49,929 bases of DNA from a virus (lineage: Duplodnaviria; Caudoviricetes). Of this stretch, positions 3,974 to 41,763 are shown piece after piece (positions within the stretch are counted from its first letter, which is position 1; each line of letters starts with the position of its first letter). The notes beneath the pieces were generated by a model. That model did no database searches. It saw only the letters and a program-made list of their open reading frames with translations, and had not been told where the DNA came from. Both the position numbers and the translations under genes were made by a program. The stretch spans positions 1 to 49,929 of IMG/VR virus record IMGVR_UViG_3300037424_000509; one strand, given 5' to 3'.

Positions 3974-3997
3974 CTATCCTTTATCCGTTCCCGGTGG
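3974..3997. repeat. 24-bp direct repeat flanking the Dam-like gene (copy 2 at 4388..4411; partial copy at 3818..3831)
   Basis: ctatcctttatccgttcccggtgg at both sites. Confidence 0.9.
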
Positions 3998-4382
3998 CAT
4001 CTAAAATAAAACAACAGATCGGAGACGGCCCCTTTTGCGGCTCCCGCGTGTCTGCCTCTAAAAATCTCACCCTGCCCATAGACCTCAATTCCGCCCCTGC
4101 TTCAAGTAGCAGATTTACATACGATTGAACCGGCAACAATAATACTGATGTCTTTCCATTTTTCATTTCCTCAATCGCTTTCCGTGCGAAAGCCGTAGGT
4201 CCTCCAAATGGTGAATCTTTTTTCCTGAATGGCGGATTTATATAATTTGAACTTCCCCACGGAACAACAAGTCCATTATAATTTTCTGGACGTGGACATG
4301 GACAGGGGTCAAAGTCAAAATTAAATTCATCGTTTAATTTTTTATAAATTTCAGGAGGTGTTAACCAATATCGTTTATTCAT
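3981..4382 (-). CDS. Phage DNA N6-adenine methyltransferase (phage Dam family)
   Basis: WLTPPEIY...FDFDPCP...GL..PWG..YINPPF; motif IV NPPF. Confidence 0.85.
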   Translation of the reverse strand: MNKRYWLTPPEIYKKLNDEFNFDFDPCPCPRPENYNGLVVPWGSSNYINPPFRKKDSPFGGPTAFARKAIEEMKNGKTSVLLLPVQSYVNLLLEAGAELRSMGRVRFLEADTREPQKGPSPICCFILDATGNG

Positions 4383-10791: not shown

Positions 10792-12075
10792 ATGCCAAAA
10801 TTAAATTTAGGAATAAATATTTTAACCGCCGCCCAGGAAAGGATTAAATATACATTTGATAATTTTGAAAATATATATGTTTCCTTTTCTGGCGGAAAAG
10901 ATTCTTCTGTCATGACTCACCTCGTCATGGATGAAGCAATTAAAAGAAATCGAAAAGTTGGATTGTTATTTATTGATCTCGAAGCTCAATATCAATTAAC
11001 AATTAAACACGTCAAAGAAACATATGAATTATATAAAGATCATATCATTCCCTTCTGGTGTTCGATCCCCATATCATTAAGCAATGCCGTTTCTGTTTAT
11101 GAACCACGCTGGATATGCTGGGAACCAAATAAAGAATGGGTCCGCCAACCGGATGAATTAAGTATAATAGATACAAACATTTTCCCATTTTATAAATATG
11201 CAATGGAGTTTGAGGAGTTCGCGCCGCTATTCGGAAAATGGTTTTCTGGTGATGAACGGACGGCGTGTTTTGTAGGAATACGCGCCGACGAATCGCTGAA
11301 TAGATATCGGACAATCAAGTTTGAACATAAAGGCATGTATAATGGTAAGCAATGGACAACACTCGTTGACGATAATCTCTATAACGCATATCCAATTTAT
11401 GACTGGCAAACTGCTGATATTTGGAGATATAACGGAAAGTTTTTTAAGCCATATAATAAAATTTATGACTTAATGAACAAGGCGGGAATATCAATTCATC
11501 AGGCACGACTTTGTCAACCGTATGGATTTGACCAACGAAAAGGGTTGTGGCTTTTCCACGTTCTTGAACCAGAAACTTGGTCAAAAATTGTTGGCCGTGT
11601 TAATGGTGCGAATAGTGGATCCGAATTTGTTCAGTACAGCGGCAATATATCGGGCCAGATCAAAATAACAAAACCAGCAGGCCATTCATGGGAATCGTTT
11701 GCAAAATTATTATTGCAAAGTATGCCCAAAGAATTGGCCGATCATTATGACGATAAGATATGTCAATTTATAAGTTGGTGGCATAGTAAGGGTATCTGGT
11801 ATGATGAGAATGGTGATTTTCATTTGTGTGGTGGACATTATGGGCAAACGATACCCGATGAGGCACCAACAAAACTTGAAGCGGAAAAGAAAGCCCCATC
11901 ATGGCGTAGAATTTGCAAAGCATTATTAAGAAACGATTATTGGTGCAAAGGGCTTTCGTTCGCTCAAACTAATTCACATTCATATCAACGATATAAAGAA
12001 ATGATGAAAAAAAGAAAAAATGTAAGGGGACATGTTCCATTATGGATTTTAAAAAACATCCCGTTTCAAAAGTAA
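10792..12075 (+). CDS. PAPS-reductase-like PP-loop protein with DUF3440 C-terminus (IbrA/YbdN family)
   Basis: VSFSGGKDS PP-loop, FIDLEAQY, VGIRADESLNRY, YPIYDW, RLCQPYG, PSWRRICKALLRNDYWC. Confidence 0.9.
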   Translation: MPKLNLGINILTAAQERIKYTFDNFENIYVSFSGGKDSSVMTHLVMDEAIKRNRKVGLLFIDLEAQYQLTIKHVKETYELYKDHIIPFWCSIPISLSNAVSVYEPRWICWEPNKEWVRQPDELSIIDTNIFPFYKYAMEFEEFAPLFGKWFSGDERTACFVGIRADESLNRYRTIKFEHKGMYNGKQWTTLVDDNLYNAYPIYDWQTADIWRYNGKFFKPYNKIYDLMNKAGISIHQARLCQPYGFDQRKGLWLFHVLEPETWSKIVGRVNGANSGSEFVQYSGNISGQIKITKPAGHSWESFAKLLLQSMPKELADHYDDKICQFISWWHSKGIWYDENGDFHLCGGHYGQTIPDEAPTKLEAEKKAPSWRRICKALLRNDYWCKGLSFAQTNSHSYQRYKEMMKKRKNVRGHVPLWILKNIPFQK

Positions 12076-12536
12076 TATGGATTGAAGTAGAAAAGATTTT
12101 TTCAAATGATTATAATCCGAATAAAGTAGCTCAACCTGAAATGAAATTACTTGAAGTATCAATTCAGGAAGATGGATTTACGCAACCTATTGTCGTATGG
12201 GAAGTCGAGGACGGGTATGAAGTCGTTGATGGATTCCACAGACATCTTGTCGGTAAAAAACTTGGATTTACTCATCTTCCGATTGTTATAATAAATAAAG
12301 ATCGTCTTGATCGCGGGGACAGAATAGCATCAACCATAAGGCATAATCGAGCACGAGGAAAACATCAAATCGCAGCCATGAGTGATATTGTCGTTGAATT
12401 ATCACGCCGAAATTGGAGCGATAAAAGAATTTCAAAAGAACTCGGCATGGATGCGGATGAAATTTTGAGACTTAAACAGATAACCGGATTAGCGGAATTA
12501 TTTGCAACAGAAGAATTTTCAGAGGCATGGGAATGA
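12042..12536 (+). CDS. ParB/sulfiredoxin-like protein (IbrB/YbdM family)
   Basis: NDYNPNKVA.PEM.LL..SI.EDGFTQPIV, VVDGFHR, ASTIRHNRARGKH, C-terminal HTH. Confidence 0.9.
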   Translation: MDFKKHPVSKVIWIEVEKIFSNDYNPNKVAQPEMKLLEVSIQEDGFTQPIVVWEVEDGYEVVDGFHRHLVGKKLGFTHLPIVIINKDRLDRGDRIASTIRHNRARGKHQIAAMSDIVVELSRRNWSDKRISKELGMDADEILRLKQITGLAELFATEEFSEAWE

Positions 12537-21843: not shown

Positions 21844-22077
21844 TTAATGAATCAGCACCGTATCACCCTTGCGACCAGGCCGAGAGAGATTCATGGCCCC
21901 ACATTTGCAGGTCACCACAAAATACTTCTCCTTGTTATGGTACTCGGTATAGCCCTTAAAAATAGTGCGCTCACCGGATTTAATGATGATCGCTGCACCA
22001 CAGGCTTTGCAGCGCAGCGTTTTCGGTGGCTTCTTGGATCTCTTTGGGCGTATGTATTCCGTTGTACTATCGACCAT
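21844..22077 (-). CDS. Com-like Zn-ribbon protein
   Basis: LRCKACGAAI...VVTCKCGAMN resembles the Mu Com zinc finger. Confidence 0.55.
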   Translation of the reverse strand: MVDSTTEYIRPKRSKKPPKTLRCKACGAAIIIKSGERTIFKGYTEYHNKEKYFVVTCKCGAMNLSRPGRKGDTVLIH

Positions 22078-25000
22078 TCGTTACCTTTTTGGCTTCCTGT
22101 TGTGCCTGTTGCTCTTTACTCTTGGCCTCTTGTTTTTTCTTCACGGCCTCGCCCTTCCTTGCCGTGTCCTCGCCGGCAGTATGTACGGTGTCCACCGCTT
22201 CGTCCGCTCCACCATGGCCAGAAAATGTTTCGGTCAGGGTAGTAATAAAATTCTTGATCGCGTTTTTGACCCGTTCCCGGCCTGCTTTTTTGGCTTCCTT
22301 GACCGTTGCGTCCTTTTGAATCTGGGCATTGTTAATCCGCTGCATATGGTTTTCGAGCCGCATTTTTTCCAGGGCGAGCTTGGTAAACTTATCCTTGGAC
22401 CCGTCCTTATTGGCCTGGATATCATCCGGAGAGTATGACGCCTGCAGCGTATCAAGCTGGGCTGATACCTCCTGCTGTTTTTGCTTTAGGATCCCCAGAA
22501 CTTCCTCCGGCTTCTTATCCTGTGCCAGCTTTTTGTCCTTCCCCTGGTACTCACCCTTCTTTTCCTTGGGTCCGGGTTCCGGCTGGTCTGGGGCTACCCA
22601 TACAGTCTGTTTTTTTCCAAGCTTATTGGTTATAACCTTTTTCTGGAGACGGCCCCGATTCGTGGCTTTAAGTAATTCAGCACACTCGCCGGGGATTCCG
22701 GTCGTGGTAGGCATCTGAACGAGATAAAGTTTGCCGTTCCGGAGTTGTATCCGGGCCTTAAGTATGGTATTTGAAGTGAAAAACATGGTCAGTGCCTTTT
22801 TTAGTTCCTTGTATTTTATGGTCTTGAGCAACAGGTCCGTGTATGTTTGAACAGACTTCTCGACCGTGGGGACCTCTTTCTCGTTAGCTTTAATATCCCG
22901 CTTTGCCTTTTCAATGAGCCGCGGCAGTTCCGCTTTCATGGCCTTCTCTCGTTCTACCAGTTTTTCAATCTCTTGTTCCTGCTTTTTGACTTCCATCGGG
23001 ATCTGCTCGGCGGTAATACCCATGTCTTTGAGCTTGGCATTTATCCGGTCAATTTGGTCATTGATCTTTTTAATATCCATGTTATAGCCCCGGATTTGGT
23101 CCTTTGCCCGCTTGACATAGCTTAATTCGTTATCTAACTCGCGCTCGGCCTGCTGCCGGTATGTTGCATGAGGATCTTTTTCGCCCTTCTTAACTTTGGG
23201 AATCGCATCGTACCGCTCTTTGACCTCATCATAATCCTTTTGATACGTTGCCAGGGTCCGATCGCTACGCTCAATGTCATCCTTGACCGATGATATCCGG
23301 TAGGCAGCGTTTCCCAGGTCCTCTTTATTCTTATTCAGCATATCGATTCCGATACGGATATCGCGCTTGTCATTGTCAATTTTTTCGAGCTCAAGGTCCA
23401 ATTGGAATTTGGCCCGCTTCTCGGGATCCTTGATGAGCGAGAATTTAAGCTCCTCGGCATTGATATCCTCGACGTTCAGATTATCGCCCTTATAACTCCA
23501 TACCTGCTCGAAGCGCGCTCCCTTCTCGTCGTGCTTTTGATACATGGCACTGTCCACGGAGTTGATGATCTGGGGATAGACAATATGGACGTTCTCCTGG
23601 AGATTTCCCTGTCGCCAGATTCGGCCCTTGACCTGGGTGCGCTCTGACGGATTCCATCCCAAAAGGGTGTTATATAGGATAGCACTGTTACCGTTCAGGT
23701 TGATGCCTTCTTTAATGGTTTCAGATCCTATCAGGACCTTAATTTTTCCCTTGGGATCGTTAAATTCGGCTTTGATCGTCTCGACCTTATCCCGGCCCCC
23801 TGCCATCTGTGAGTGGATCGTGGCGATCGCATCACGCGGGATTCCTTTGGATATCAGGTAAGAAACGACCTCACCATAATGTTCAATGCCCCGCGGCATA
23901 TAAATGACCTGCCCTACTTCGGGCCGCTCCTTATACACATTGGCGGTGACATCAGCCACAAATTTGAGTTTAGGAGAATCCTCGACAAGTTTGGTGTCGG
24001 ATATATCGATGCCCTGGTGATATTTATCAAAATTGACCATTTTCATACTCATGGTGGACATTCGCATGTTGTTGATGGCCTTGAGTGCTGCGCCTGGCTC
24101 CTCGTCTTTATCCGCTTTAAACCGCTCCTGTTCCGCCATCATTAAGGCCCGCTGATCGGCGGTCATCGGCAGTTCGACGATATGGTTAAAATCTCTGGGC
24201 CGCTCAATGCCCGCTTCCTCACCGTCGATTTTATCAATATACTCGATAATGAGATTCTGGAGTTCACCCAAGTTTTGAAATTCCTTCATAACCGCTTTTT
24301 TCTTGATGGTCCCGTCTGTGGCTGCCACCCACTCGGTTTTGAGCTTGGCAAACTTGGCCATGAACTCATGGAGGTTATAAATGCCGAGCTGCTTGAGTTT
24401 TTTCCTGGCCACTAGGGAGAGAATGTTATATATCTCCAGGGGTGAGTTCGTGAACGGGGTGGCGGACAGTGCAAAAACATTCCGGTCGTTATTGTTTTTC
24501 TGAATATACTGTGTAACCGCGAACATTTTCATGGCCCGGTCTGACTGCGACCCGGTAATGTCACCAAATTCGTTGGCCATCGCCTGCCCTTCCTTGCCAG
24601 TCGGCTTGGCGCGGGCGAATACATTTTTGAAGTTATGTACCTCGTCAATCGTGATATGGTCAAAACCTAGATCCTCAAAGTAAATCATATTGTCTTTGGT
24701 TTTGGATCCCCGGCCCACCATTTCTAATATTTTTTCGGTTTGCTGGGCCTCCTCGCGTGGCGTCATTCCTTCTTTGGTTGTCTGCTGAGAATCCAACATG
24801 TCCTGGGCGATGCCACCCACGATTATTTTGTCACCTACAATACCCAACGTCTCATCATGAAATGTCATGTTCTGCAGGGCTTCATAGGTCATAACAGAGA
24901 GAGTTCCTTCCTCAATGACCGGCGGATTGCCGTTGGTAATATACTGAGACCCCAGGTTTCCCAACTCATTAATTTTAATGTTCGGAAACAGGTCCCGGAT

Positions 25001-28000
25001 CTCTGCCAGCCAGTTTTCATATACTGCTTTTGGAATACATAGAACTGGCCGCTTTGCCCTCGTGGTCTGAATCTGATTGACTGTTGCCATAGCACCCACA
25101 AGCGTTTTTCCTAGTCCAACATCATAGGCAATCAATCCGTTGCCTTTATTACAGAGGAAGGATGTTCCTCGGAGCTGGTGTGGCTGGACTACCAGTTCTT
25201 TGCCCTTGAAGGTCTTGGATATACCGTTCACAAATATCGGGATATTGGAATAATCGGGATCGACGTTGGAGTTAAATATCCGGTTATGTCGGTCCTCGAA
25301 TGTTTTCTGGTCGTCAGCCGAAAGGCCAGTTTCCAGGAATCGCTTGAACAGTTTCTCAGCTATCTGCCGGCGCATTTCCCGCGTCCGCTCGGCAATGGCC
25401 TGGTTGTTGGCCTTATCACCTTTATTGCTGGCGCGGACCGGTTTTTGTTCGATATAATCAACTACATCACTCCACCCGATGCCGGCGGGGAAATCGTGTC
25501 GCGTGACATTGCCATCAAAATTCATGCCCATCTTGCCGTAATAGGTGTCTGCCTTTTTACCCGTGGCCCACTCATAGAATTTATCAATAAGCATATCAGG
25601 GGTTTCCACGATGCCAAAATTGAAGGTCTTGGCGTATTCCGAGATTGGGGAGACGCTGACATTCTGAATGGTCTTGCGCGCGGGCATCGCCTTTAAGAGT
25701 AATTCTTTCTGGCGGTTATAAAGGCCAATGGGCATGAAATCTTTATCTCTCTCCAGTTGGTCCAGCTTGGCATAGATATCACCGCTCACATAGTTGGATA
25801 CATGATAGGCCTTGCCCGCCATCATGCAGTATTTATCCGATGATGTGAATCCATCCCTAGCCTTCGGAGACAGTTTGGCTATATCGACCGCGCCATCGTA
25901 TCCGGTCGCCTTCCAGATATCAAGGTCAAGCGCGTCGAACTGCTTATTATATTTGGCGGAAAATTCCTGCGCCGACATTTCGCCCTGCAGCTCCGCCGGG
26001 ATCGCGGTGGCACCAGGCTCTATTTGTAGTTTATCGGTTACATTTCGATATTGCCGTTTTTCTTCTGGGGAGAGTTCTTTGCCGGTTTTGATTTTCTTTT
26101 CAAGTTGTTGGACTTCTTTCCGAAATTTTGATTGATCCACGGTATCAGTAATCGACGGCTGCTTGATCGTTCCCCGCTTGAGTAATTCCCGCTCCATTTC
26201 CGAATAATTATTATATTGCTGCTCGGTCATGTCCGGCTTTTTCTGCATGACCTCGTATGACTCTTTAAGCTTTTTAGTGTTGATTCCGGAATATTTAGTC
26301 TTTGCCATAACATCATGTGCGCTGGCAGCGTTCTGATTGCCCTGCATAGCTATGGCTATTTTCTGCTTGCCCTCCTCGGTCATGGTGGGCTGGCCCACGG
26401 AGACCGGGTTGAACTGATTGGTATTCAGCAAGTTAAAAACGTCAGCAAAAGCCATGTTATCCTTGGGCTGGACATATTTCATCGGGCCAAATTTGCCAGT
26501 TTTAGTTACTTGTTCGCCCAGAATACAATCTGGGTGTTGGTTAAAGAAACCGTCACCGAGGAAGTCAGCAACATTTCCTTTTTCCTTGCGGATGACAAGG
26601 ATATCCGTGCCCACGCCGGTCGTGTTAAACGTACCATTCGGGAGCCGCCACGCCTCCAGGAGCCTGCCCTTCTCGGCCAGCTTTTCTTTGATTTTTTTAT
26701 TGCTCTCCTTCCGGAGAAAATCGGATGGGACTACAAAGGTCATAATCCCACCTTCTTTCAGTACATCGAGGCCTCGGTCAATGAAATATTCCTCGTAGCG
26801 TTTATGGCTTTTTCCCTCTCCCTTGCCCTTGTGGATCCCGGAGTATTCACCATACGGTGGGTTGCCGATGACCACATCGTACTTTTTCCCGCTGTATTTC
26901 TCCTGTGGTGCGCCGTTCTTATAAAATATTTCCTGAAAGGCACCCTGTTTGACGTTTTGGCCGGGATTCAGGATCTTGGCGATCCGGGCGGACGTGGGGT
27001 CAATCTCTATCATGTCAAATTTATGGCCGTCGCGGTTCGCAAAACGTCCCGTGCCGCAACTCGGCTCCAGGACCTCCGCGCCCTTGCCGGCGTACTTCTC
27101 GGTCAGATCCCACATCTTATCTACCACGGTTTTTGGTGTATAAAACTCATAGAGGGTACCGTGAGTGGTAGCCTCATCCTCATGCAAACCGCCCGCTCCC
27201 TCATATTGCATGAGCAGGGCTTTCTCGGTATCGGTCATTGCATCGTCTTGTTTGGAGTTTAAAAGGGTGTGTACTTGCTCGCGGATCTCTTTGGCTTGTT
27301 TCGGGGTCAGGCGAACATCTGCTGCAGATCGCTCTCTAAATTCGCCGCCATCGAGTACAAGTTCGCCTCGGTAATCTCCAGGTTTTGCCTCTGGCACATC
27401 TTTAAGAGTTGATCCCGCAGCCGCTCCGGCGAGTACCGTAGCGTCAGTTGCGGAAACTTCTCCGGATCCAGCTTCAGATTTATTTGGTCCATTGGTTTCT
27501 CCTAGTTTATATTGGAATCCCTGATGTTTGAGGTTATTCAGCCATGTCGTCAGGAAACTATTCAAGTCTTTTTTGGCCCGCAGGTTGACTTTTCCTGCCT
27601 CTGGGTAAACCTCGGTAAATACTCCTACACCATCATTCTGAAATGTCAGGGCCTCGACGGATCCAAATTGCGGTCTTACCCTGATTTCCATATCAGGATC
27701 GGCCATAACATCACCATTTTGAATATAATTATGGGCTATAGCAAAGTCAATATATTGGCCATCCTTGTCCGTACCCGCCCGCAGCCGATCGATCGACAGG
27801 GGCATATACGGTGGGTTCTCGATTTTCGCATATTCTTTAACGCCCAGGATCCCCAGGGCCTCCATGCGTTTAAAATTCTTACCATAGACTGTGGTTGCCG
27901 CGGCTTCCTGCTGTTCTTGGTAGGTATCGTCAGGGTTTGGAGCCGGGGTCGTGGCCGGTGTTACAGGCGGGTGGCCTCCGGTTGCTGTAAGATTCGCCCG

Positions 28001-28903
28001 GTGCCAGGCGTTGCTCCATGCGGCCAAAATCTTGTTTCCACCACCACCCAGGGGAAGACCAGCCGTGAGATTGATGACTTTTTGATCCAGTGCTGGTGTA
28101 GCTGTTTTACCGTTTTGATATGCGAGTGTCCCCAGGCGTTCCGCTTCCAGTACCCTATCCGATATGGACATCTGACTAACATCCGGCATCGTATCAAAAT
28201 TGTTTTCTGCCACGGGTGTCAATTCGCCGCTCGCCCGCATATCCTTGTATGATTGAAAACTGATCATGCCCGATCCGTTGCCATCTATGTCTTTATAATG
28301 AACATATTTATCATCAATTCGGGTTATTACAAAGTCGGATTCCACATGCTTACGTTTTAATTTTTTATCCAGCATATCTGACGACTGGTGTATACGGTCC
28401 CCAATTTTCGGGAGTGTGCTACCGGTACCCGGCATCGTCTCAAAATTATCCTCTGATTGATGGTCAGGCTGTGTCTTCTGATAAGTATCATGTATAAAAT
28501 TTAATACCGATAGTTTAAGAATGTGTCCCTCTGGGTGCAGGATCATAGCAGACTTTTCGCTCGGCCTGCCAGTTGCTTTTTTGTTGGTTACTGCTGTTTT
28601 GGATGCGGGCCGGCTTGAAAAATAACCATCCCATTTATTCTTATGGGAAAAATACTCATACACATGGTTCATCCATTCTTTTGGGGTGATGTCGAATTTC
28701 TCTTGAATGTTCTGCTTGGCATATTCCGTCCGAACCATGGTGACGAACTGCTCTTTATTTTTAAATCCAAAAAACTCCAGGATCCGCGTTAGGACTGACT
28801 TCGATTCCACTCCGGCCATTTTAACATATACAGTTGTTCGCTTTCCCTTTTTGTCAATGATGGCTTTCTTTTGCAACTTCGATGTATCTTTTTTGCCTAG
28901 CAT
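22067..28903 (-). CDS. Giant DarB-like protein: N6-adenine methyltransferase plus SNF2/SF2 helicase with accessory domains
   Basis: EFYTP, VLEPSCGTGRF, VIGNPPY (MTase); DVGLGKT, DEVHNFKN, LSATP, QVKGRIWRQGN (helicase); DUF6908/DUF1249-like AHNYIQNGDVMADPDMEI segment. Confidence 0.9.
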   Translation of the reverse strand: MLGKKDTSKLQKKAIIDKKGKRTTVYVKMAGVESKSVLTRILEFFGFKNKEQFVTMVRTEYAKQNIQEKFDITPKEWMNHVYEYFSHKNKWDGYFSSRPASKTAVTNKKATGRPSEKSAMILHPEGHILKLSVLNFIHDTYQKTQPDHQSEDNFETMPGTGSTLPKIGDRIHQSSDMLDKKLKRKHVESDFVITRIDDKYVHYKDIDGNGSGMISFQSYKDMRASGELTPVAENNFDTMPDVSQMSISDRVLEAERLGTLAYQNGKTATPALDQKVINLTAGLPLGGGGNKILAAWSNAWHRANLTATGGHPPVTPATTPAPNPDDTYQEQQEAAATTVYGKNFKRMEALGILGVKEYAKIENPPYMPLSIDRLRAGTDKDGQYIDFAIAHNYIQNGDVMADPDMEIRVRPQFGSVEALTFQNDGVGVFTEVYPEAGKVNLRAKKDLNSFLTTWLNNLKHQGFQYKLGETNGPNKSEAGSGEVSATDATVLAGAAAGSTLKDVPEAKPGDYRGELVLDGGEFRERSAADVRLTPKQAKEIREQVHTLLNSKQDDAMTDTEKALLMQYEGAGGLHEDEATTHGTLYEFYTPKTVVDKMWDLTEKYAGKGAEVLEPSCGTGRFANRDGHKFDMIEIDPTSARIAKILNPGQNVKQGAFQEIFYKNGAPQEKYSGKKYDVVIGNPPYGEYSGIHKGKGEGKSHKRYEEYFIDRGLDVLKEGGIMTFVVPSDFLRKESNKKIKEKLAEKGRLLEAWRLPNGTFNTTGVGTDILVIRKEKGNVADFLGDGFFNQHPDCILGEQVTKTGKFGPMKYVQPKDNMAFADVFNLLNTNQFNPVSVGQPTMTEEGKQKIAIAMQGNQNAASAHDVMAKTKYSGINTKKLKESYEVMQKKPDMTEQQYNNYSEMERELLKRGTIKQPSITDTVDQSKFRKEVQQLEKKIKTGKELSPEEKRQYRNVTDKLQIEPGATAIPAELQGEMSAQEFSAKYNKQFDALDLDIWKATGYDGAVDIAKLSPKARDGFTSSDKYCMMAGKAYHVSNYVSGDIYAKLDQLERDKDFMPIGLYNRQKELLLKAMPARKTIQNVSVSPISEYAKTFNFGIVETPDMLIDKFYEWATGKKADTYYGKMGMNFDGNVTRHDFPAGIGWSDVVDYIEQKPVRASNKGDKANNQAIAERTREMRRQIAEKLFKRFLETGLSADDQKTFEDRHNRIFNSNVDPDYSNIPIFVNGISKTFKGKELVVQPHQLRGTSFLCNKGNGLIAYDVGLGKTLVGAMATVNQIQTTRAKRPVLCIPKAVYENWLAEIRDLFPNIKINELGNLGSQYITNGNPPVIEEGTLSVMTYEALQNMTFHDETLGIVGDKIIVGGIAQDMLDSQQTTKEGMTPREEAQQTEKILEMVGRGSKTKDNMIYFEDLGFDHITIDEVHNFKNVFARAKPTGKEGQAMANEFGDITGSQSDRAMKMFAVTQYIQKNNNDRNVFALSATPFTNSPLEIYNILSLVARKKLKQLGIYNLHEFMAKFAKLKTEWVAATDGTIKKKAVMKEFQNLGELQNLIIEYIDKIDGEEAGIERPRDFNHIVELPMTADQRALMMAEQERFKADKDEEPGAALKAINNMRMSTMSMKMVNFDKYHQGIDISDTKLVEDSPKLKFVADVTANVYKERPEVGQVIYMPRGIEHYGEVVSYLISKGIPRDAIATIHSQMAGGRDKVETIKAEFNDPKGKIKVLIGSETIKEGINLNGNSAILYNTLLGWNPSERTQVKGRIWRQGNLQENVHIVYPQIINSVDSAMYQKHDEKGARFEQVWSYKGDNLNVEDINAEELKFSLIKDPEKRAKFQLDLELEKIDNDKRDIRIGIDMLNKNKEDLGNAAYRISSVKDDIERSDRTLATYQKDYDEVKERYDAIPKVKKGEKDPHATYRQQAERELDNELSYVKRAKDQIRGYNMDIKKINDQIDRINAKLKDMGITAEQIPMEVKKQEQEIEKLVEREKAMKAELPRLIEKAKRDIKANEKEVPTVEKSVQTYTDLLLKTIKYKELKKALTMFFTSNTILKARIQLRNGKLYLVQMPTTTGIPGECAELLKATNRGRLQKKVITNKLGKKQTVWVAPDQPEPGPKEKKGEYQGKDKKLAQDKKPEEVLGILKQKQQEVSAQLDTLQASYSPDDIQANKDGSKDKFTKLALEKMRLENHMQRINNAQIQKDATVKEAKKAGRERVKNAIKNFITTLTETFSGHGGADEAVDTVHTAGEDTARKGEAVKKKQEAKSKEQQAQQEAKKVTNGR

Positions 28904-31281: not shown

Positions 31282-34200
31282 TTAGAGAGTATACTTGGAA
31301 TGTGTCACAGCCTCAACAATGACTAGGGATGTCAGGGCCGGGAGAATGATCTTTTTCGATATCATATTTTTGGCTTTTTGAAACATCTGCTTATAGCGCG
31401 GTGTTGGTTCGGTCGTGTCCCCTTCCTGAAGCCAGGTCGCAAAGTCATCAACCGGCAGCGGTACGACTTCGCCCATGCCCCGCCACCCTTCTGGGTAGTG
31501 CTTAAGATAGGCGTCCTGGGCCTCGTCCTGGGCATTAAACCCGATCATGCATTTATGCTCGTTAAAGTCGCCTGACTCCGGATCTACCTGATGAACCACA
31601 TACACGGTGTCTGCCGTATCCATGGCCGGGCCGATAAACACATCCACATGATCGCCGTCAGCTCCCTCGGACCGATTGACATACCCATAATGATGGTATA
31701 CATCAGTCTCCCATGGTTCTCCGTCCGAACCAATGCCGGAGCGCATGGATCCCGCCGGATTCTCGATGGTGATTTTCAGACCATTCCAGGAGAATGACGC
31801 CTTTTTATAGTTACCAGCCTCTTTCTGTGCCGGGCTGGGGTCAGTGTCCACGTCCTGCAGGAGATCGGCCAGGTCCTCATAGGTGGTGGCTTTTATGATA
31901 GACAGATTATTTTCTTGACTTTCATTGCCCTTCTTTATATCTTTATTCTTAGAAGGGGGAGGCGTTTCGGACGTTAAGGGCTGTGGGGTCATTGCGACAT
32001 CAGCTCGCCCCCTTTTTTTAATATACATTGTTTTAGAAGTAAGAGTTTTATTCCCGGTCCGCACTTCCTCTAAATAATATACCGTGCCATTATACTGTTT
32101 ATTATATATAATAACCTCATTGCCTAATGAAGTTTTTTTGCTTTTACTCATACCATCAGGATTATGAATAATATCAGGGATTTTTTTTAGGTCGTCAATG
32201 GTAACGGCTATTTGACGGCGTCGAGTCTCCCGCTTGGGGTTGCCATGCTCTTGAAGCATGTGTCTTAAACCATAGTTTTCAAGTCGATGTGTATAGCCTT
32301 GGCAATCTAATCCAATCTTTGTGAATTTCTCATTCTCCTTCGCATCTACCGTGCCGATATCATATGTTGTCTTTTGACCCCCTGGTCCGGTGATGGCATC
32401 ATGGATGAAAGTATTCAGATTGTTTCCATGTCCCCTCTCTCCCGCGCCCCCTCCCCTGGTGGACCCGTGGTGCTGCCGTCCTTCCTGGTTGGCATCCGGT
32501 GGTGCCACATATACAGTCTGCTGATATCCCAGCTTATTGGTTATGACTTTCTTCTGCAGCCGGGATCTATCCTTGGCCTTGAGCAGAATCAGAGTGCCAT
32601 CTAGTCGGCGTACTAGGCGGGCCTTGGTCATGTGACCGCCGCGCTCATGTACCTGGGCCACTTCCAGGGCATTGAGTCCACTATCATAGTCCGGATTCTT
32701 GCGATACTTCCCACTTTCCAACATGCTGTTACCATCGCGGGTCACAATATCCCGGAAATATCCCTGCTCAATTCCGGTCTTAATTGCTGTAGCCGTGGCA
32801 TCACCTTCATCCAGACCCACGGCAAACATGTCTATTGCACCGACTTTCACTGAAAATTCATGAGCTTGCTGTAAACCAATTTTTCCGTCCCCCAAGAAGG
32901 TTGCTGCGGGGATATTTATAATACCTCTGACCCTGCCTATACTTGCGCCGATCAGCGTTACAAAAAAATCTTTGAGCAACTGATGTTTTTTAACAATATT
33001 CACCAAGTCTGGTGGGCCAGTAATATGCTCTCCGATAGCAGCATGGGCATGAGATGGCGTGAGATACTCTGCACCCCGCCGCATGGTAGGATCTACTGTC
33101 ATGGATGATTTCCGTCCCTGCTCATCGATTAAGGCATACTGATCATGGTCAATAATTACATGGCCTTTAAAACCAGAAAGGTTTTTCCGATAAAAATTAG
33201 TAACCAAACTGTCGTTGAGAGATGGCTGTGGTTGTCCGCTGGGATGGTTATGCATGATATAATATTGCATGGCACCGGACGCCTGCATTTTCATCTTCAT
33301 GTCAATAATGGAGGCGACTTGATCCTTGGGATGAATAAAGGCCGCCGCCGTACCCGGCAGCCGGCACGATACACCGGTTTCTAGCACTACCTTATTTTTG
33401 TTATTCAGCATAAAAATACGCATGGTTTCAAATTGGGGGTTACGATAAACTTGCGCCAGGTGCGCCAAATCCGCAGGATCTTTGATTTTTTGGCCCAGGA
33501 GAGATATTTTATTACTCTCAGTCCATTCCTTTTCATAATTCAGATTGATCCCAGATGCAATAAGCTCTCCCTTGAGCTTGGCCGCTTCCGGTAATAAGGG
33601 TGAGCTATCTAATTCACCTGGGTGCGCCTCGAAGATATGCTGCGAGCTCGGTTCCTGGGGTAAGACATGATGGCGGTCGCGCTGTTTCTTGATGATCCCT
33701 GGTTTCTGTAAATCCTCGGGTCGTACCCAGACCGATTGGCGGCGGCCTATCTTATTGGTTATAACCTTCTTAATCAGGTGACCCGTGTTTTTGGCTTTTT
33801 GAAGTATGGCTTTGAACATACCGACGTGCGGAACATATTCTTTTTCCTGCTGGATATTCTCGGGTGTAATTTCAGATAGCGGCCCACGGCCCTGTGTCAA
33901 GGTTTTCGACAGTGTTCCGGGAATAGACTTTATGTTGTTCGCCCGGTACCGGATGATTGCTTTGGTCATTGCGGGATGAACCACCCCGGCCTTGAGTACA
34001 ATCTCCTGCCCAGCCAAGGGACCGTCCTCGATATCGATCCATTCAATATCCTTATGTTTTTCCCTTACCGTATGTTTAACGGTCCGATCGAACCGGATGT
34101 CACCGGGAACATGGCCCATGGGCGAGCTCGCCTTGAGGATCCGCCCGGTACCGGCGATGCGATAGGTTTTACACAGGCATCGCTCGACGCACTCTTGGAG

Positions 34201-35067
34201 GATGGGCAAGCCAGCCTCCCAGCTCTGTCGGTTGACCTGTTCGGCAGCCACCCGAGAAAAAATGCCTTCCACCAGATCCCGGCCCTGCTTTTCATAGAGA
34301 TCCATGAGCCGAATATATCCGGAGTTGACCGTCCGAGCCTTCACACAAAACATGTACAAGGTGCAGAATAATTCCTCGTCGTTTTTCCACCAATAGGCAC
34401 TGGTATAGATGGGCGGGACCGTATCTTTCTTGAATGTTTTTTGATAGTCTTTGAACGCCTTCTTTTCATCAGCAGTGAGCCTATTGGTCCAGTACATATG
34501 GCCTAGTTCGTGTAAAAACTCGGTCACGGGGTCGCTGGGGTCATATAAGGTTATTTCAATGCCGATGGTTGAGGCCCTGATGAGTTCCTTGACCTGGGCG
34601 GGGGTTGGCTTGCGGAAGGTGAGTATCACCGGATGGTCCGGGAGCCAGGATTCACCACACTGCAGGCCGCGGATGAAGCGCACGGCGTTATGCTGCTGAT
34701 CTGCCCACTCCCCCAACCAGTTGTCCCGCTCCGGGGTAAAGATGACCAGTTCGTTACCAGCGACTATGCTGGGTTTACCCTGGACAATTACAGCCTCACC
34801 GGTAAACGCCTTCCGGAGCTGCTGGTCCGCATACTCACGGAGTTGTCCGCGCCGGTGCAGGATGAGGCTGTCTGGATTTTCGCCCACGGCCAAAAAAGTG
34901 CGCCCGTCGATCGATATGAACGCGGGCTGTTTGTCAATAATAGCTTTGCGTATGTCTTTTAATGTATAAGTAGAGCCATAGGCTATTTCGTAGCCTGCTC
35001 CTGCGAGCCGCTTCCGCGTGTCCCCCAGAGTGTACCGCTCATAGGGGACCAATTCTTTAATCTGCAT
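31282..35067 (-). CDS. Polyvalent protein: zincin metallopeptidase, JAB/RadC, PBECR-type RNase and inorganic-pyrophosphatase-like domains
   Basis: FLHELGH...EELF; HNHPSGQPQPSLND...GHVIIDH; LRHMLQEHG...VTIDDLKKIPDII..PD...LEEVRTG..L..KTMY; AQKEAGNYKK...IENPAGS.RSG...HYGY...GADGDHVDVFIG...EHKCMIGF. Confidence 0.85.
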   Translation of the reverse strand: MQIKELVPYERYTLGDTRKRLAGAGYEIAYGSTYTLKDIRKAIIDKQPAFISIDGRTFLAVGENPDSLILHRRGQLREYADQQLRKAFTGEAVIVQGKPSIVAGNELVIFTPERDNWLGEWADQQHNAVRFIRGLQCGESWLPDHPVILTFRKPTPAQVKELIRASTIGIEITLYDPSDPVTEFLHELGHMYWTNRLTADEKKAFKDYQKTFKKDTVPPIYTSAYWWKNDEELFCTLYMFCVKARTVNSGYIRLMDLYEKQGRDLVEGIFSRVAAEQVNRQSWEAGLPILQECVERCLCKTYRIAGTGRILKASSPMGHVPGDIRFDRTVKHTVREKHKDIEWIDIEDGPLAGQEIVLKAGVVHPAMTKAIIRYRANNIKSIPGTLSKTLTQGRGPLSEITPENIQQEKEYVPHVGMFKAILQKAKNTGHLIKKVITNKIGRRQSVWVRPEDLQKPGIIKKQRDRHHVLPQEPSSQHIFEAHPGELDSSPLLPEAAKLKGELIASGINLNYEKEWTESNKISLLGQKIKDPADLAHLAQVYRNPQFETMRIFMLNNKNKVVLETGVSCRLPGTAAAFIHPKDQVASIIDMKMKMQASGAMQYYIMHNHPSGQPQPSLNDSLVTNFYRKNLSGFKGHVIIDHDQYALIDEQGRKSSMTVDPTMRRGAEYLTPSHAHAAIGEHITGPPDLVNIVKKHQLLKDFFVTLIGASIGRVRGIINIPAATFLGDGKIGLQQAHEFSVKVGAIDMFAVGLDEGDATATAIKTGIEQGYFRDIVTRDGNSMLESGKYRKNPDYDSGLNALEVAQVHERGGHMTKARLVRRLDGTLILLKAKDRSRLQKKVITNKLGYQQTVYVAPPDANQEGRQHHGSTRGGGAGERGHGNNLNTFIHDAITGPGGQKTTYDIGTVDAKENEKFTKIGLDCQGYTHRLENYGLRHMLQEHGNPKRETRRRQIAVTIDDLKKIPDIIHNPDGMSKSKKTSLGNEVIIYNKQYNGTVYYLEEVRTGNKTLTSKTMYIKKRGRADVAMTPQPLTSETPPPSKNKDIKKGNESQENNLSIIKATTYEDLADLLQDVDTDPSPAQKEAGNYKKASFSWNGLKITIENPAGSMRSGIGSDGEPWETDVYHHYGYVNRSEGADGDHVDVFIGPAMDTADTVYVVHQVDPESGDFNEHKCMIGFNAQDEAQDAYLKHYPEGWRGMGEVVPLPVDDFATWLQEGDTTEPTPRYKQMFQKAKNMISKKIILPALTSLVIVEAVTHSKYTL

Positions 35068-37461: not shown

Positions 37462-37953
37462 TTACTGTAGGTTAATATATTTCCCGGCAATTCCAGATTG
37501 CCTTAACGCTTCCGCATTATTCTTACCGTATGCTACTAAGGCCGATGGCCCGCCGGAATTGGAGTCGGCTCGCCGTCCATCCACATAATGAAAATATAAC
37601 CTGCCTTGTATAAATAGGATGGCGTGAGCCTTTGCCCAGACATGCTCAAAAAACATCTCGGTTTCCGTCCGGGCGAATATGAGGGCGATCCCATTACCGT
37701 GCTCTGCAAGCTTATTCAACCACCATCCGGTTTCTTTGCCATACGGGGGATTGCACCAGACGCGGCCCTCCCACGGCATAAGTAGACCATTATCTTGGAC
37801 GGTATAATGCCGGCGGGCCATATCCCACGGCCTGACAACCGGCGCACAGGGATCAAGATCAAACTCTCCCAAAGCGCGGATTATTTTCGGGGGCGTCAAC
37901 CACTCATCGTTTAACATCCGGTGCGATTGATGTGATCCTATACCTGTTTTCAT
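37462..37953 (-). CDS. Phage DNA N6-adenine methyltransferase (phage Dam family)
   Basis: DEWLTPP, FDLDPCA, DNGL..PWEGRVWCNPPYG, ALIFARTET. Confidence 0.9.
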   Translation of the reverse strand: MKTGIGSHQSHRMLNDEWLTPPKIIRALGEFDLDPCAPVVRPWDMARRHYTVQDNGLLMPWEGRVWCNPPYGKETGWWLNKLAEHGNGIALIFARTETEMFFEHVWAKAHAILFIQGRLYFHYVDGRRADSNSGGPSALVAYGKNNAEALRQSGIAGKYINLQ

Positions 37954-40108: not shown

Positions 40109-41763
40109 GCAAATAACCTTTCTTGTTTAAATGCTTCCGCCATGCGTTTGACCGCAATTTGATATGAGTCGGGATCATCTTCAAACCCACACATCTTAAA
40201 CCCTTCCAACCAGGCCGCTATCAGCGTGGTCCCGCTACCAGCACAGATGTCGAGCACTATCCCGCCCGGTGGGGTAACGAGTCGGCACAGGTACCGCATG
40301 AGTGCCAAGGGCTTGACCGTGGGATGGGTGTTACCATACCCTCGCTCTAATTTGGACGCCTTGGCACAATATTTAAACCTGTTTACGTAGACCTTCTCCC
40401 CACGAACCATACTGTGCAACATGGCGTTCGATATGATGTTTCCGACAAAGCCATCTATATTCAAAAGGTTTTGAATAATCATCATGGTGTTTATCAGTTT
40501 TTGGATTTCCGCATATTTCACAGGGTTGTGGCTTAATTTTTCCATGATCATGCGCGCGAGTCCGTGCAAGCACCTTGAGCCGGTACTGTGAATCATTGTG
40601 ATAACTGATTCTTCGTTGCTCTTTAATGATATCCTTATTACGTTCATAAAAGGTATTATCATATCTCTTAACTGCTTGTCCTCTTGGCATTGCTCTATTG
40701 CTACAAGTTTTAGAACAAAATTTTCTACTCGCTCTTGCCGGGATAAAATATTTTCCACAGTATTCGCATTGTCGCATATATCTCCCTCTGAAAAACGACA
40801 TTGTATAAAAAACCTGGCAGCAGATCCAGTGTCGCCGCGTTTCTCCACGGGGATCCGGCCACTATAATTCCCATAAACATTTTTCATCGGTAAAGACGGC
40901 TCTGTCCCCCGGATATCTCCTTGCTGACCATTGGAGTCTGGAAACATATCCAGGACCTCCTCGCTGCCGTCGTGGAGGATGTTGGCCGGAAACCTGCCGG
41001 TGGGTTGCGGTTTGACTTGAAAGTTGCTTTTCTTGGGGGTTTTATTCTGAAAACAATCTTCGTTGATATAATGGCGAATGTCATATTCTCCGGGCTCCGC
41101 CGGCACCCGGCATTTATCGACATTAATTGCCCCGGTTCCCCACTTGAGCACGTTGGCAGCCACAGTTTCTTCCGAGATGGGCTTCCGGGCCAATACGATC
41201 GGTTCCCAAGCGGGCTTGAGGGCGGTCCCCCACCCGTCCCACTGCTGGGCCTCGGGGGTGGTGGGAGCGGTGATAGGTTCGGTCCTCTGTATGCCTGTTT
41301 GTCCCTCATATTTATTTTTGGAAAAAGAACCGGCCCCGCTGCCAGCATTATGGCCCCACAATTTCTTTTCTCCAACAACAGGCCGTTCCGCGCCCGCCGC
41401 CTTATCGATCGCCTTGCTCACGTCCATCGATTTTGGAAATCCCTGGGAGTAAAGCCACCCGAGCTGATCCCTGATCTCAAATCCAGCGTCCTCAATGTTT
41501 ACGACTCCCCGGTGATAGGTCCGGGTCCCGAAAAATGATAGCAGATGGCCGCCGGGTTTCAGCACCCGCAGGGCCTCTCGCCACACATCGATGCCAGGAA
41601 CAGTACGGTCCCATTCTTTACCCATGAATCCAGGTCTTTTACCATTCCCAAATCCATAGGGCGGATCTGTGACAATAGCATCGATAGAATTATCAGGCAA
41701 CATCTGACGCATCCCGGCGAGATGATCCATAAAAAATAGCTTATTGATAAAGTCATTGCTCAA
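40105..41763 (-). CDS. N4-cytosine/N6-adenine DNA methyltransferase (beta class) with a 145-codon in-frame insertion
   Basis: IVTDPPY, LRVLKPGGHL, GFPKS, GTALKPAWEPI, GRFPAN, HPTVKP, VLDICAGSGTT; insert splits the usual SAARFF-YCAKAS motif. Confidence 0.9.
   Translation of the reverse strand: MSNDFINKLFFMDHLAGMRQMLPDNSIDAIVTDPPYGFGNGKRPGFMGKEWDRTVPGIDVWREALRVLKPGGHLLSFFGTRTYHRGVVNIEDAGFEIRDQLGWLYSQGFPKSMDVSKAIDKAAGAERPVVGEKKLWGHNAGSGAGSFSKNKYEGQTGIQRTEPITAPTTPEAQQWDGWGTALKPAWEPIVLARKPISEETVAANVLKWGTGAINVDKCRVPAEPGEYDIRHYINEDCFQNKTPKKSNFQVKPQPTGRFPANILHDGSEEVLDMFPDSNGQQGDIRGTEPSLPMKNVYGNYSGRIPVEKRGDTGSAARFFIQCRFSEGDICDNANTVENILSRQERVENFVLKLVAIEQCQEDKQLRDMIIPFMNVIRISLKSNEESVITMIHSTGSRCLHGLARMIMEKLSHNPVKYAEIQKLINTMMIIQNLLNIDGFVGNIISNAMLHSMVRGEKVYVNRFKYCAKASKLERGYGNTHPTVKPLALMRYLCRLVTPPGGIVLDICAGSGTTLIAAWLEGFKMCGFEDDPDSYQIAVKRMAEAFKQERLFA
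40373..40777 (-). CDS. HNH-type endonuclease with N-terminal Zn finger, nested out of frame inside the methyltransferase
   Basis: GAGGGAG RBS just before ATG 40777; CEYCG...FCSKTC; PCEICG...KHHDDYSKP...WLCRKHH...H. Confidence 0.85.
   Translation of the reverse strand: MRQCEYCGKYFIPARASRKFCSKTCSNRAMPRGQAVKRYDNTFYERNKDIIKEQRRISYHNDSQYRLKVLARTRAHDHGKIKPQPCEICGNPKTDKHHDDYSKPFEYRWLCRKHHIERHVAQYGSWGEGLRKQV

Follow-up and report, generated by a model that had tools for sequence, protein, structure and literature searches.

An HNH endonuclease gene hidden out of frame in a phage methylase was described in 2025 for gp65 of the mycobacteriophage ShiLan (Arsenault, Gosselin & Gogarten 2025, PMC11855218). 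According to the available text of that paper, the element carries no stop codon in the host frame, contains neither intron nor intein, is patchily distributed and is proposed to use leaderless initiation, no Shine-Dalgarno sequence having been found. The available portions of two further papers deal with the ShiLan domain (Gosselin et al. 2023, PMC9957025) and report that Pacc40 gp60 and Applejack gp54/55 also hold a hidden out-of-frame HNH (PMC12613952), and the accessible sections of two preprints place out-of-frame homing endonucleases inside inteins, in cyanobacterial dnaX (bioRxiv 10.64898/2026.09.14.751524) and in actinophages (bioRxiv 10.1101/2025.01.02.630785). Here we analyze an insert in a 49,929-nucleotide stretch of tailed-phage DNA (IMG/VR record IMGVR_UViG_3300037424_000509, hereafter the window), which has terminase, portal and major capsid genes and an estimated completeness of 59% (CheckV). 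The insert is a 435-nt segment with an HNH-type reading frame, and it interrupts a DNA methyltransferase gene of the same PF01555 family as ShiLan gp65. We consider it about 80% probable that the insert is a second gene in a shifted frame, likely a selfish homing element, and that the methylase (host) frame is likely read straight through it; no splicing would be needed because ribosomes likely translate the methylase frame across the insert.

Relatives of the hidden protein were collected by profile scans in the HNH frame, a search blind to whether the host frame is open, and these gave 205 loci, one of which (L102) came from a DNA pattern scan; the metagenome scan covered 27 of 64 parts and the best 80 of 566 matches. 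Nested in a methylase between the host residues RFF and YCAK were 102 of the 205 loci (L168, on a contig without the upstream flank, was included by hand), and these are 102 of the 103 best-scoring loci, the sole exception (L198) being free-standing with six stops in the corresponding frame. Collapsing the nested inserts by shared 11-mers, at roughly 90% identity, left 73 distinct sequences, and junction statistics refer to the 64 for which both junctions were found (nine miss one). When 50%-identity representatives were searched with a profile of the host-frame peptide, which detects open frames only, 255 clusters reached E ≤ 1e-10; all 150 of the 150 matches listed belong to this methylase family, and the downstream YxxK motif is present in 149. 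Profiles were required, as a single-protein scan with the HNH protein found only the window locus in viral contigs. GenBank phage records held no close member among the best 30 of 291 matches, the top-ranked near-full-length one being 33% identical, and 10 of the 22 matches of the DNA pattern scan were chance hits without HNH or methylase. The family occupies hosts of 38-70% GC in uncultured phages, and the 64 inserts show 23 lengths (140-184 codons) and 16 different start offsets with an identical remainder modulo 3.

At this locus alone, an open host frame has a chance of P = 0.5-0.7% by synonymous randomisation and 5.8% by codon permutation, which is only moderately unlikely, and the strong evidence comes from the family. 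Host-frame stops are absent from 73 of 73 distinct nested inserts, a total of 9,720 codons, against a synonymous randomisation expectation of 3.1 open host frames in 73. Among 87 non-nested relatives (98 clusters minus 11 with spans outside 90-180 codons), the equivalent frame is open in one and holds a mean of 4.4 stops, and the third frame averages 8.4 stops in nested and 8.5 in non-nested sequences. The same avoidance is seen in codon pairs of the nested inserts, where NTA stands before a purine in 0 of 601 cases and before a pyrimidine in 68 of 525, NTG before A in 0 of 162 against 178 of 675, and Met before A in 0 of 43; free relatives have no such deficit of stop-making pairs. Substitutions were counted in 25 disjoint close pairs, with the loci L300 and L301 excluded. 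Changes silent for HNH and altering the host residue reached 351/3601 (0.097), close to the doubly silent class (16/116), and changes altering HNH and silent for the host reached 71/3036 (0.023). HNH-silent changes that create a host stop were observed in 0 of 149 cases, where about 14 were expected. With a median DNA identity of 59% among inserts, identity in the HNH frame is 42-64% with 23 invariant columns (30 rows), and in the host frame 9-49% with a single invariant column (55 rows). We conclude that selection purges host-frame stops and preserves the HNH frame while host residues drift almost freely, so that both signatures proposed as checks in the first-pass annotation of this DNA, stop avoidance in the host frame and purifying selection on HNH, were found.

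The two excluded contigs (L300/L301:2001-2400) have an HNH frame broken by an internal TGA and an uninterrupted host frame, and are a putative case of a decayed nuclease. Residue usage in the host frame of 72 nested inserts departs from synonymous randomisation, with Glu, Asp, Gln, Leu and Ser above it and Pro, Gly and Arg below; Arg makes up 4.5% in nested inserts and 11.1% in the equivalent frame of free-standing relatives, and the nested peptides are much less basic. Among these related sequences the usage hints at weak selection for a soluble helical host-frame loop. In the AlphaFold model of the window methylase the host-frame insert forms three helices with a predicted local distance difference test score (pLDDT) of 50-79, between low-confidence linkers.

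The features of the insert and of its host gene are listed in Table 1. The methylase open reading frame (ORF) matches phrog_67 (E 4e-62), starts at a TTG that overlaps the stop of the upstream ORF and stays open across the insert, where the third frame has 22 stops. Motif IV precedes the variable region and motif I follows it, which is the order of a beta-class enzyme, and both halves of the AlphaFold model of the 552-aa protein match solved enzymes of this class such as M.BceJIV and MboIIA (best E 2e-10), with a core pLDDT of 90-98 on both sides of the insert.

Table 1. Features of the insert and of the methylase gene that contains it (positions in the window).
Feature	Position	Strand	Remarks
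Host methylase gene	41763-40105	minus	Beta-class N4/N6 DNA methyltransferase, 552 aa; PF01555, E 1e-23
Catalytic motif IV, DPPY (aa 33-36)	41656..41667	minus	From the translation; upstream of insert; nearly invariant in family alignment
Upstream CAGGTTT	40810..40816	minus	Host R-F codons; repeat not conserved in family
Insert	40372..40806	minus	435 nt, 145 host-frame codons, between RFF and YCAK
TACAAT, weak -10-like hexamer	40800..40805	minus	Start of insert; not counted as promoter
Shine-Dalgarno-like GAGGGAG	40782..40788	minus	4 nt before HNH ATG, within host codons S-E-G-D
Hidden HNH-type gene	40373..40777	minus	134 aa; ATG at 40777, TAA at 40375-40373; offset 2 from host frame
Downstream CAGGTTT	40375..40381	minus	Insert 3′ end re-creates R-F-x before YCAK; overlaps HNH TAA
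Conserved HPTVKP	40309..40326	minus	Downstream of insert
S-adenosylmethionine-binding motif I region	40225..40251	minus	Downstream of insert; DICAGSGTT here, DPFxGSG in family

The first-pass annotation had described an insert bounded by a CAGGTTT repeat, stop-free in the methylase frame, with a 134-aa zinc-finger/HNH ORF that is preceded by GAGGGAG and whose TAA overlaps the downstream repeat. These points were all confirmed, down to the positions of the two copies, which lie in register 435 nt apart (a third copy is at 40996-40990). Its further claim that deleting the segment between the repeats restores the conserved motif held for the length and failed for the boundaries, since such a deletion would leave R-F-K-Y, a junction without counterpart in plain-junction relatives. 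These carry RFF before the Y in 60 cases, RYF in five and RFK in none (66 of 79 scored; the 66th is the inserted L013). Alignment of homologues with and without the insert thus places the natural empty site at RFF/YC, with the methylase conserved in both groups, and it follows that the insert has the boundaries given in Table 1 and that its own 3′ end supplies the second R-F-K. Insert 3′ ends encode R in 57 of 64 cases and F in 52 of 64, and because they do, the CAGGTTT repeat is a side effect. We rejected the repeat as a target-site duplication or bypass signal, as it is not conserved and RFKY occurs in no empty allele. Junctions of the FSEEEK type (L016 and L024) were also set aside, being internal repeats of the methylase module and not HNH inserts.

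Contigs from separate studies match the insert letter for letter, two of them (X4 and X5) spanning both junctions, and the insert is therefore not an assembly artefact. The insert has a GC content of 38.6% between flanks of 53% and 52%, and its deficit relative to the host is the largest of 51 (-0.15; mean -0.067, standard deviation 0.029); as proof of recent arrival this is weak, for the window averages 45% and the methylase is a GC-rich part of it. The junction already accommodates short loops of 4 residues in ShiLan and Lilac and of 15 residues in L049. At the empty site the first and second codon positions are conserved, and a homing target is expected to be a conserved sequence.

If the methylase were dispensable, the insert might simply inactivate it, and the open frame would be a by-product or a relic, perhaps in this copy especially. 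The available text on ShiLan describes its methylase as non-essential (PMC11855218), other methylase genes occur in the window, and the insert adds 145 residues to the target-recognition region. The window copy also has an unusual motif I, DIC in place of DPF, and because of this the window's own methylase may be impaired. Against inactivation, stops are avoided across HNH ORFs that have diverged as far as the median identity given above, and selection on the host gene is unchanged on either side of the insert. The ratio of nonsynonymous to synonymous substitution (dN/dS) is 0.18 upstream and 0.15 downstream in inserted alleles and 0.18 and 0.13 in empty ones (15 close pairs per class), the inserted pairs being more diverged, with a synonymous difference (pS) of 0.62 versus 0.37. 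Catalytic motifs are likewise kept, motif I in 59 of 60 closed host ORFs and a DPPY-type motif IV in 55, the exceptions being one DPMY and four ORFs whose start lies downstream of motif IV (three or more of them split by another insert). The methylase is conserved on both sides of the insert and looks alive, and we regard its inactivation as improbable.

The overprinted element would, in our preferred reading, be mobile, and its distribution is patchy. On a FastTree phylogeny of 49 inserted and 65 empty hosts, computed with the insert omitted, the inserted/empty label changes 23 times, at least 11 of these changes being forced by starred branches, compared with 37 for shuffled labels; such counts do not separate gain from loss. 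An approximately unbiased test on a random 16 + 16 of the 114 rows rejected a single inserted clade (p 6e-6). The nearest HNH relatives of the window copy (68% and 66% identical) sit in hosts that are 48-50% identical to its own, and its nearest hosts (67% and 65%) are empty; overall, host and HNH trees share the nearest neighbor in 12 of 48 cases.

This distribution also bears on the idea that the two genes form a domesticated restriction-modification or competition cassette, in which the methylase protects its own DNA and the nuclease attacks unmethylated rivals. Both frames are maintained, and nuclease and methylase are linked in 102 of the 103 closest loci and in all 150 listed host-frame matches, as a cassette would predict. 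Yet related nucleases are found in such distant hosts and seldom share a nearest neighbor with them, sequences upstream of the site vary greatly, the nuclease is missing from sister alleles and its decay is tolerated. A cassette of this kind is a shade less credible again than inactivation.

Very improbable, in our judgment, is removal of the insert from the message, either as an unrecognised self-splicing intron or by bypassing as in T4 gene 60. In the window copy AGG-TTT does flank the insert at either end, within a 7-nt repeat that is in register, and 31 of 64 inserts have the same F codon at the two ends. Taking the insert out of the mRNA would, however, lift selection against stops in the host frame, and the avoidance of stops throughout the family argues against it; the product RFKY, moreover, is that of no empty allele. 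For an intron there is little room, with 12-105 nt (median 36) outside the HNH ORF, and an Rfam search of 16 loci at E ≤ 1 gave no intron; its matches, two tRNAs and a weak snoRNA, all lay outside the inserts. Intron boundaries are given as a 3′ G and a 5′ GUGYG in the available text of PMC11855218; inserts end in G in 16 of 64 cases and their first five bases vary, as scored at the RFF/YCAK junction only. Pairing between the two insert ends is no stronger than in GC-matched controls (-14.58 vs -14.59 kcal/mol), and folding of six inserts against shuffles gave no stable fold (z-scores -1.2 to +2.8). Bypassing requires that take-off and landing codons match and that take-off is accompanied by a stop or hungry codon, as set out in the accessible part of Manning & Atkins (bioRxiv 10.1101/2022.08.31.505936). 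In the family, an in-register repeat of at least 7 nt occurs in 7 of 64 inserts, R and F codons both match in 8, and RFF is followed by AGG once and by a stop in no case. Ribosomal bypassing between the matched AGG-TTT codons, one of two routes suggested in the first-pass annotation, is thus not supported. Its remarks that a ribozyme had no evident room and that the methylase-frame peptide lacked intein termini agree with our results: the first residue is C, S or T in 1 of 64 inserts, HN or HQ before C, S or T occurs in none of the 64, and no Hint family was detected on the 552-aa protein. The insert has the features of neither an intron nor an intein, and stop avoidance, selection, patchiness and the conserved host lend strong support to the other route, in which dual coding lets the gene tolerate a mobile endonuclease and the host frame is translated across it as a loop.

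The hidden protein begins with a CxxC/FCS zinc finger, followed by a helical linker and a C-terminal CxxC..HH..CxxH..H domain. It matches phrog_2340 (endonuclease, E 1e-8) and phrog_1271 (HNH endonuclease, E 4e-6), and the His residues of a 30-member profile align with the Cas5-HNH active site, a weak match (E 0.04). The His-His and CxxC/H...H residues are retained in 73 of 73 inserts (68 by the strict pattern, the other five lacking only the Trp). Its AlphaFold model has a pLDDT of 86.6, with two strands and a helix at residues 95-123 (pLDDT about 87-90), and an Atlas ranking, which we treat as a lead only, is headed by viral clusters (0.94-0.95), with HNH clusters following at 0.90-0.91. From the sequence comparisons, the hidden protein is likely an HNH-type nuclease. 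Least probable of all is that it is a zinc-finger DNA-binding protein without nuclease activity, for which weak structure matches and Pfam matches of family members mostly to the zinc finger could be cited against the retained residues, the Cas5-HNH alignment and the PHROG endonuclease matches, or that the host-frame peptide is an odd intein, given its near-absent termini and drifting residues.

Several findings weigh against reading the insert as a homing nuclease gene overprinted on a working methylase. The 73 inserts share ancestry, and because of this the nominal P values are too small and overstate independence. Pfam HNH families match 2 of 30 members, with a best E of 0.02, below the cut-off, and Foldseek returned no match to the hidden-protein model at E ≤ 0.001 in a search that did not include viral structures. 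In VIA, HNH chains scored Z 3.1-3.7, and some unrelated helical rows ranked above them; the HNH rows (T5 SciA, Gme, GVE2 and P1 Ref; 9qgx, 4h9d, 5h0o and 3plw) have a root-mean-square deviation of 4.7-6.8 with 49-76 residues aligned. The conserved Asn that textbook HNH motifs carry is missing from the hidden protein. The window methylase has the motif I DICAGSGTT, whereas nearly all relatives carry DPF/Y. Contigs from eight DNA runs contained no closely related empty allele and no insert-skipping joint, although contigs drop rare variants and are uninformative on rare empty alleles. Host and HNH distances correlate (Mantel r 0.38) and insert GC follows host GC (r 0.92), from which we conclude that much of the history would be vertical, with homing occasional or old. 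Patchiness can, in principle, also arise by repeated precise loss or by module recombination.

How the hidden gene is expressed appears to differ among lineages. At the position of the window's GAGGGAG (Table 1), the close relatives L156 and L297 have AAGGAGG, and Shine-Dalgarno-like words are found in the window copy and 25 others of 42. Other inserts point to an internal promoter. A -10-like hexamer lies 5-6 nt before the start in 22 of 64, no other gap between 0 and 39 exceeding five cases, and free relatives have such a hexamer at gaps 5-6 in 3 of 76. In one class (n = 16) the arrangement is TTGCTT-N17-xAxxxT-N6-ATG, with the A and T of the -10 box present in 16 of 16. The 5-6 nt spacing from -10 box to start is that of a leaderless transcript. 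The invariant A and T coincide with host-frame Ile and Met/Leu codons, however, and because of this host-residue conservation may explain part of the -10 signal. The pattern suggests leaderless expression from an internal promoter in some lineages. Members of the TTGCTT class include L112, L114, L115, L118, L124, L135, L138, L147, L148, L149, L178, L180 and L187, and this motif shares its bases with host codons. Six others (L120, L165, L169, L173, L175 and L302) have TATAAT, TATACT or TATGAT 5 nt before the ATG, in another host register. The window's own TACAAT was not accepted as a demonstrated promoter; it was unflagged and is absent from the closest relatives, the promoter scan giving 5 sites against 3.8 ± 2.0 in shuffles.

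We infer nuclease activity, homing, translation of both frames and methylase activity from sequence, and the proposed course is as follows. The methylase would be made as a single 552-aa chain in which the 145 extra residues form a loop in the variable region, and the 3′ end of the element would rebuild R-F-x before YCAK. The HNH protein would be translated from its own start, in the window lineage presumably from a Shine-Dalgarno site inside the methylase mRNA and in other lineages probably from an internal sigma-70-type promoter that yields a leaderless mRNA. During mixed infection it would nick or cut empty alleles at or near the DNA encoding SAARFF/YCAK, and recombination would copy the insert into the cut allele, splitting the target. 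The nuclease would then be free to decay, whereas the host frame would have to remain open.

Other inserts were seen in the same methylase family. In L124:1000-1580 and L142:1000-1620 the methylase is split by a second HNH that lies further upstream: a short tail is added before a host stop, and the gene then restarts with an added leader peptide; the same leader also begins P0033, P0037, P0038, P0039 and L169, and the arrangement resembles the genes in pieces of MobA or mobE. A zinc-finger ORF interrupts the methylase near HPTVKP in L121:2600-3430 and L171, with a host stop after HPT; we presume this ORF to be Vsr/DUF559-like. The Escherichia coli phage BUCT618 (OM735461; L310:1208-1813) has an unannotated 202-codon HNH frame hidden at a GFPKS/AIDK site, with the host frame open and a host motif duplicated, and yet another site in this family lies between GKxWD and LKPGG, where L156 (host aa 52-324) and P0028 hide a further long zinc-finger ORF.

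Elsewhere in the window, a 1261-aa polyvalent-type protein (31282-35067, minus; RadC/JAB, PBECR3, InPase) and a 2278-aa DarB-like methyltransferase-helicase (22067-28903, minus) are situated between the portal and capsid genes. A PAPS-reductase-like gene (10792-12536, plus) has a ParB-like gene on the opposite strand, and a short Dam-like methylase (37462-37953, minus) and a 133-aa methyltransferase fragment (3981-4382, minus) are also present.

The 2025 study drew on about ten mycobacteriophage sequences and, in its available text, did not settle the fate of the insert (removed or not), the survival of the methylase or the way in which the hidden gene is translated (PMC11855218). The family described here answers the first two questions by selection, short of experiment, as host-frame stops are eliminated, other host-frame positions of the insert drift and the enzyme is conserved; for the third it offers two answers depending on lineage, a Shine-Dalgarno site or a promoter spaced for a leaderless transcript. 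It would also mean that gene callers miss hundreds of nuclease genes within 'long methylases'. More tentatively, and at somewhat less than even odds, read-through overprinting may be a full third route, beside introns and inteins, for homing endonucleases to reside in genes, of which this family would be the large and mature form: at least 255 clusters at one site, three codes on the same bases (nuclease, stop-free loop biased to acidic and helical residues, and leaderless promoter), a rebuilt R-F-x, and a cycle of invasion and decay around a working methylase. Our literature search found nothing on the RFF/YCAK site or on internal promoters in such inserts, with subscription papers thinly covered and supplements that may list the family.

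Compared with the systems known to us, the element is closest to ShiLan. On the available description, both are out-of-frame zinc-finger HNH genes in a phage methylase with the same frame offset and an open host frame, and both have the HNH stop at the insert end, a patchy distribution and host-like residues repeated at the junction. The RFF/YCAK family shares all five features of a ShiLan-type element, namely insertion between codons of a conserved region of a phage DNA methylase, an open host frame, an out-of-frame HNH/zinc-finger ORF that fills the insert, lack of an intron or intein signature, and patchiness. It differs from the ShiLan domain proper in both site and nuclease: ShiLan has a 197-codon frame in the TALKP region, and its 195-aa nuclease is similar to the 134-aa window nuclease only over the first zinc finger (E 9e-4) and not homologous throughout. 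The window copy also has a Shine-Dalgarno site, of which none was found in ShiLan according to the text available (PMC11855218). The intein-nested endonucleases, as the accessible sections describe them, are likewise overprinted in a stop-free insert under purifying selection; there the host-frame product splices out, whereas here the host-frame peptide drifts and has no intein termini. From the parts available, T4 gene 60/MobA (bioRxiv 10.1101/2022.08.31.505936) is likewise an HNH element in a coding gene without intron or intein, but MobA splits its gene, and the 50-nt gap, matched codons and stop or hungry codon of the gene 60 bypass are not conserved here. Aeh1 nrdA, split by mobE, similarly tolerates an HNH insertion without splicing in the available account (PMC3045599), as two chains that reassemble, whereas the window methylase is predicted to be one chain. 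The splicing-free strategy, which the first-pass annotation had implied to be undescribed, is one published in 2025 for the same methylase family. What is added here is a widespread family at a site different from that of ShiLan, in which selection, unlike in the available description of ShiLan, has been measured in both frames.

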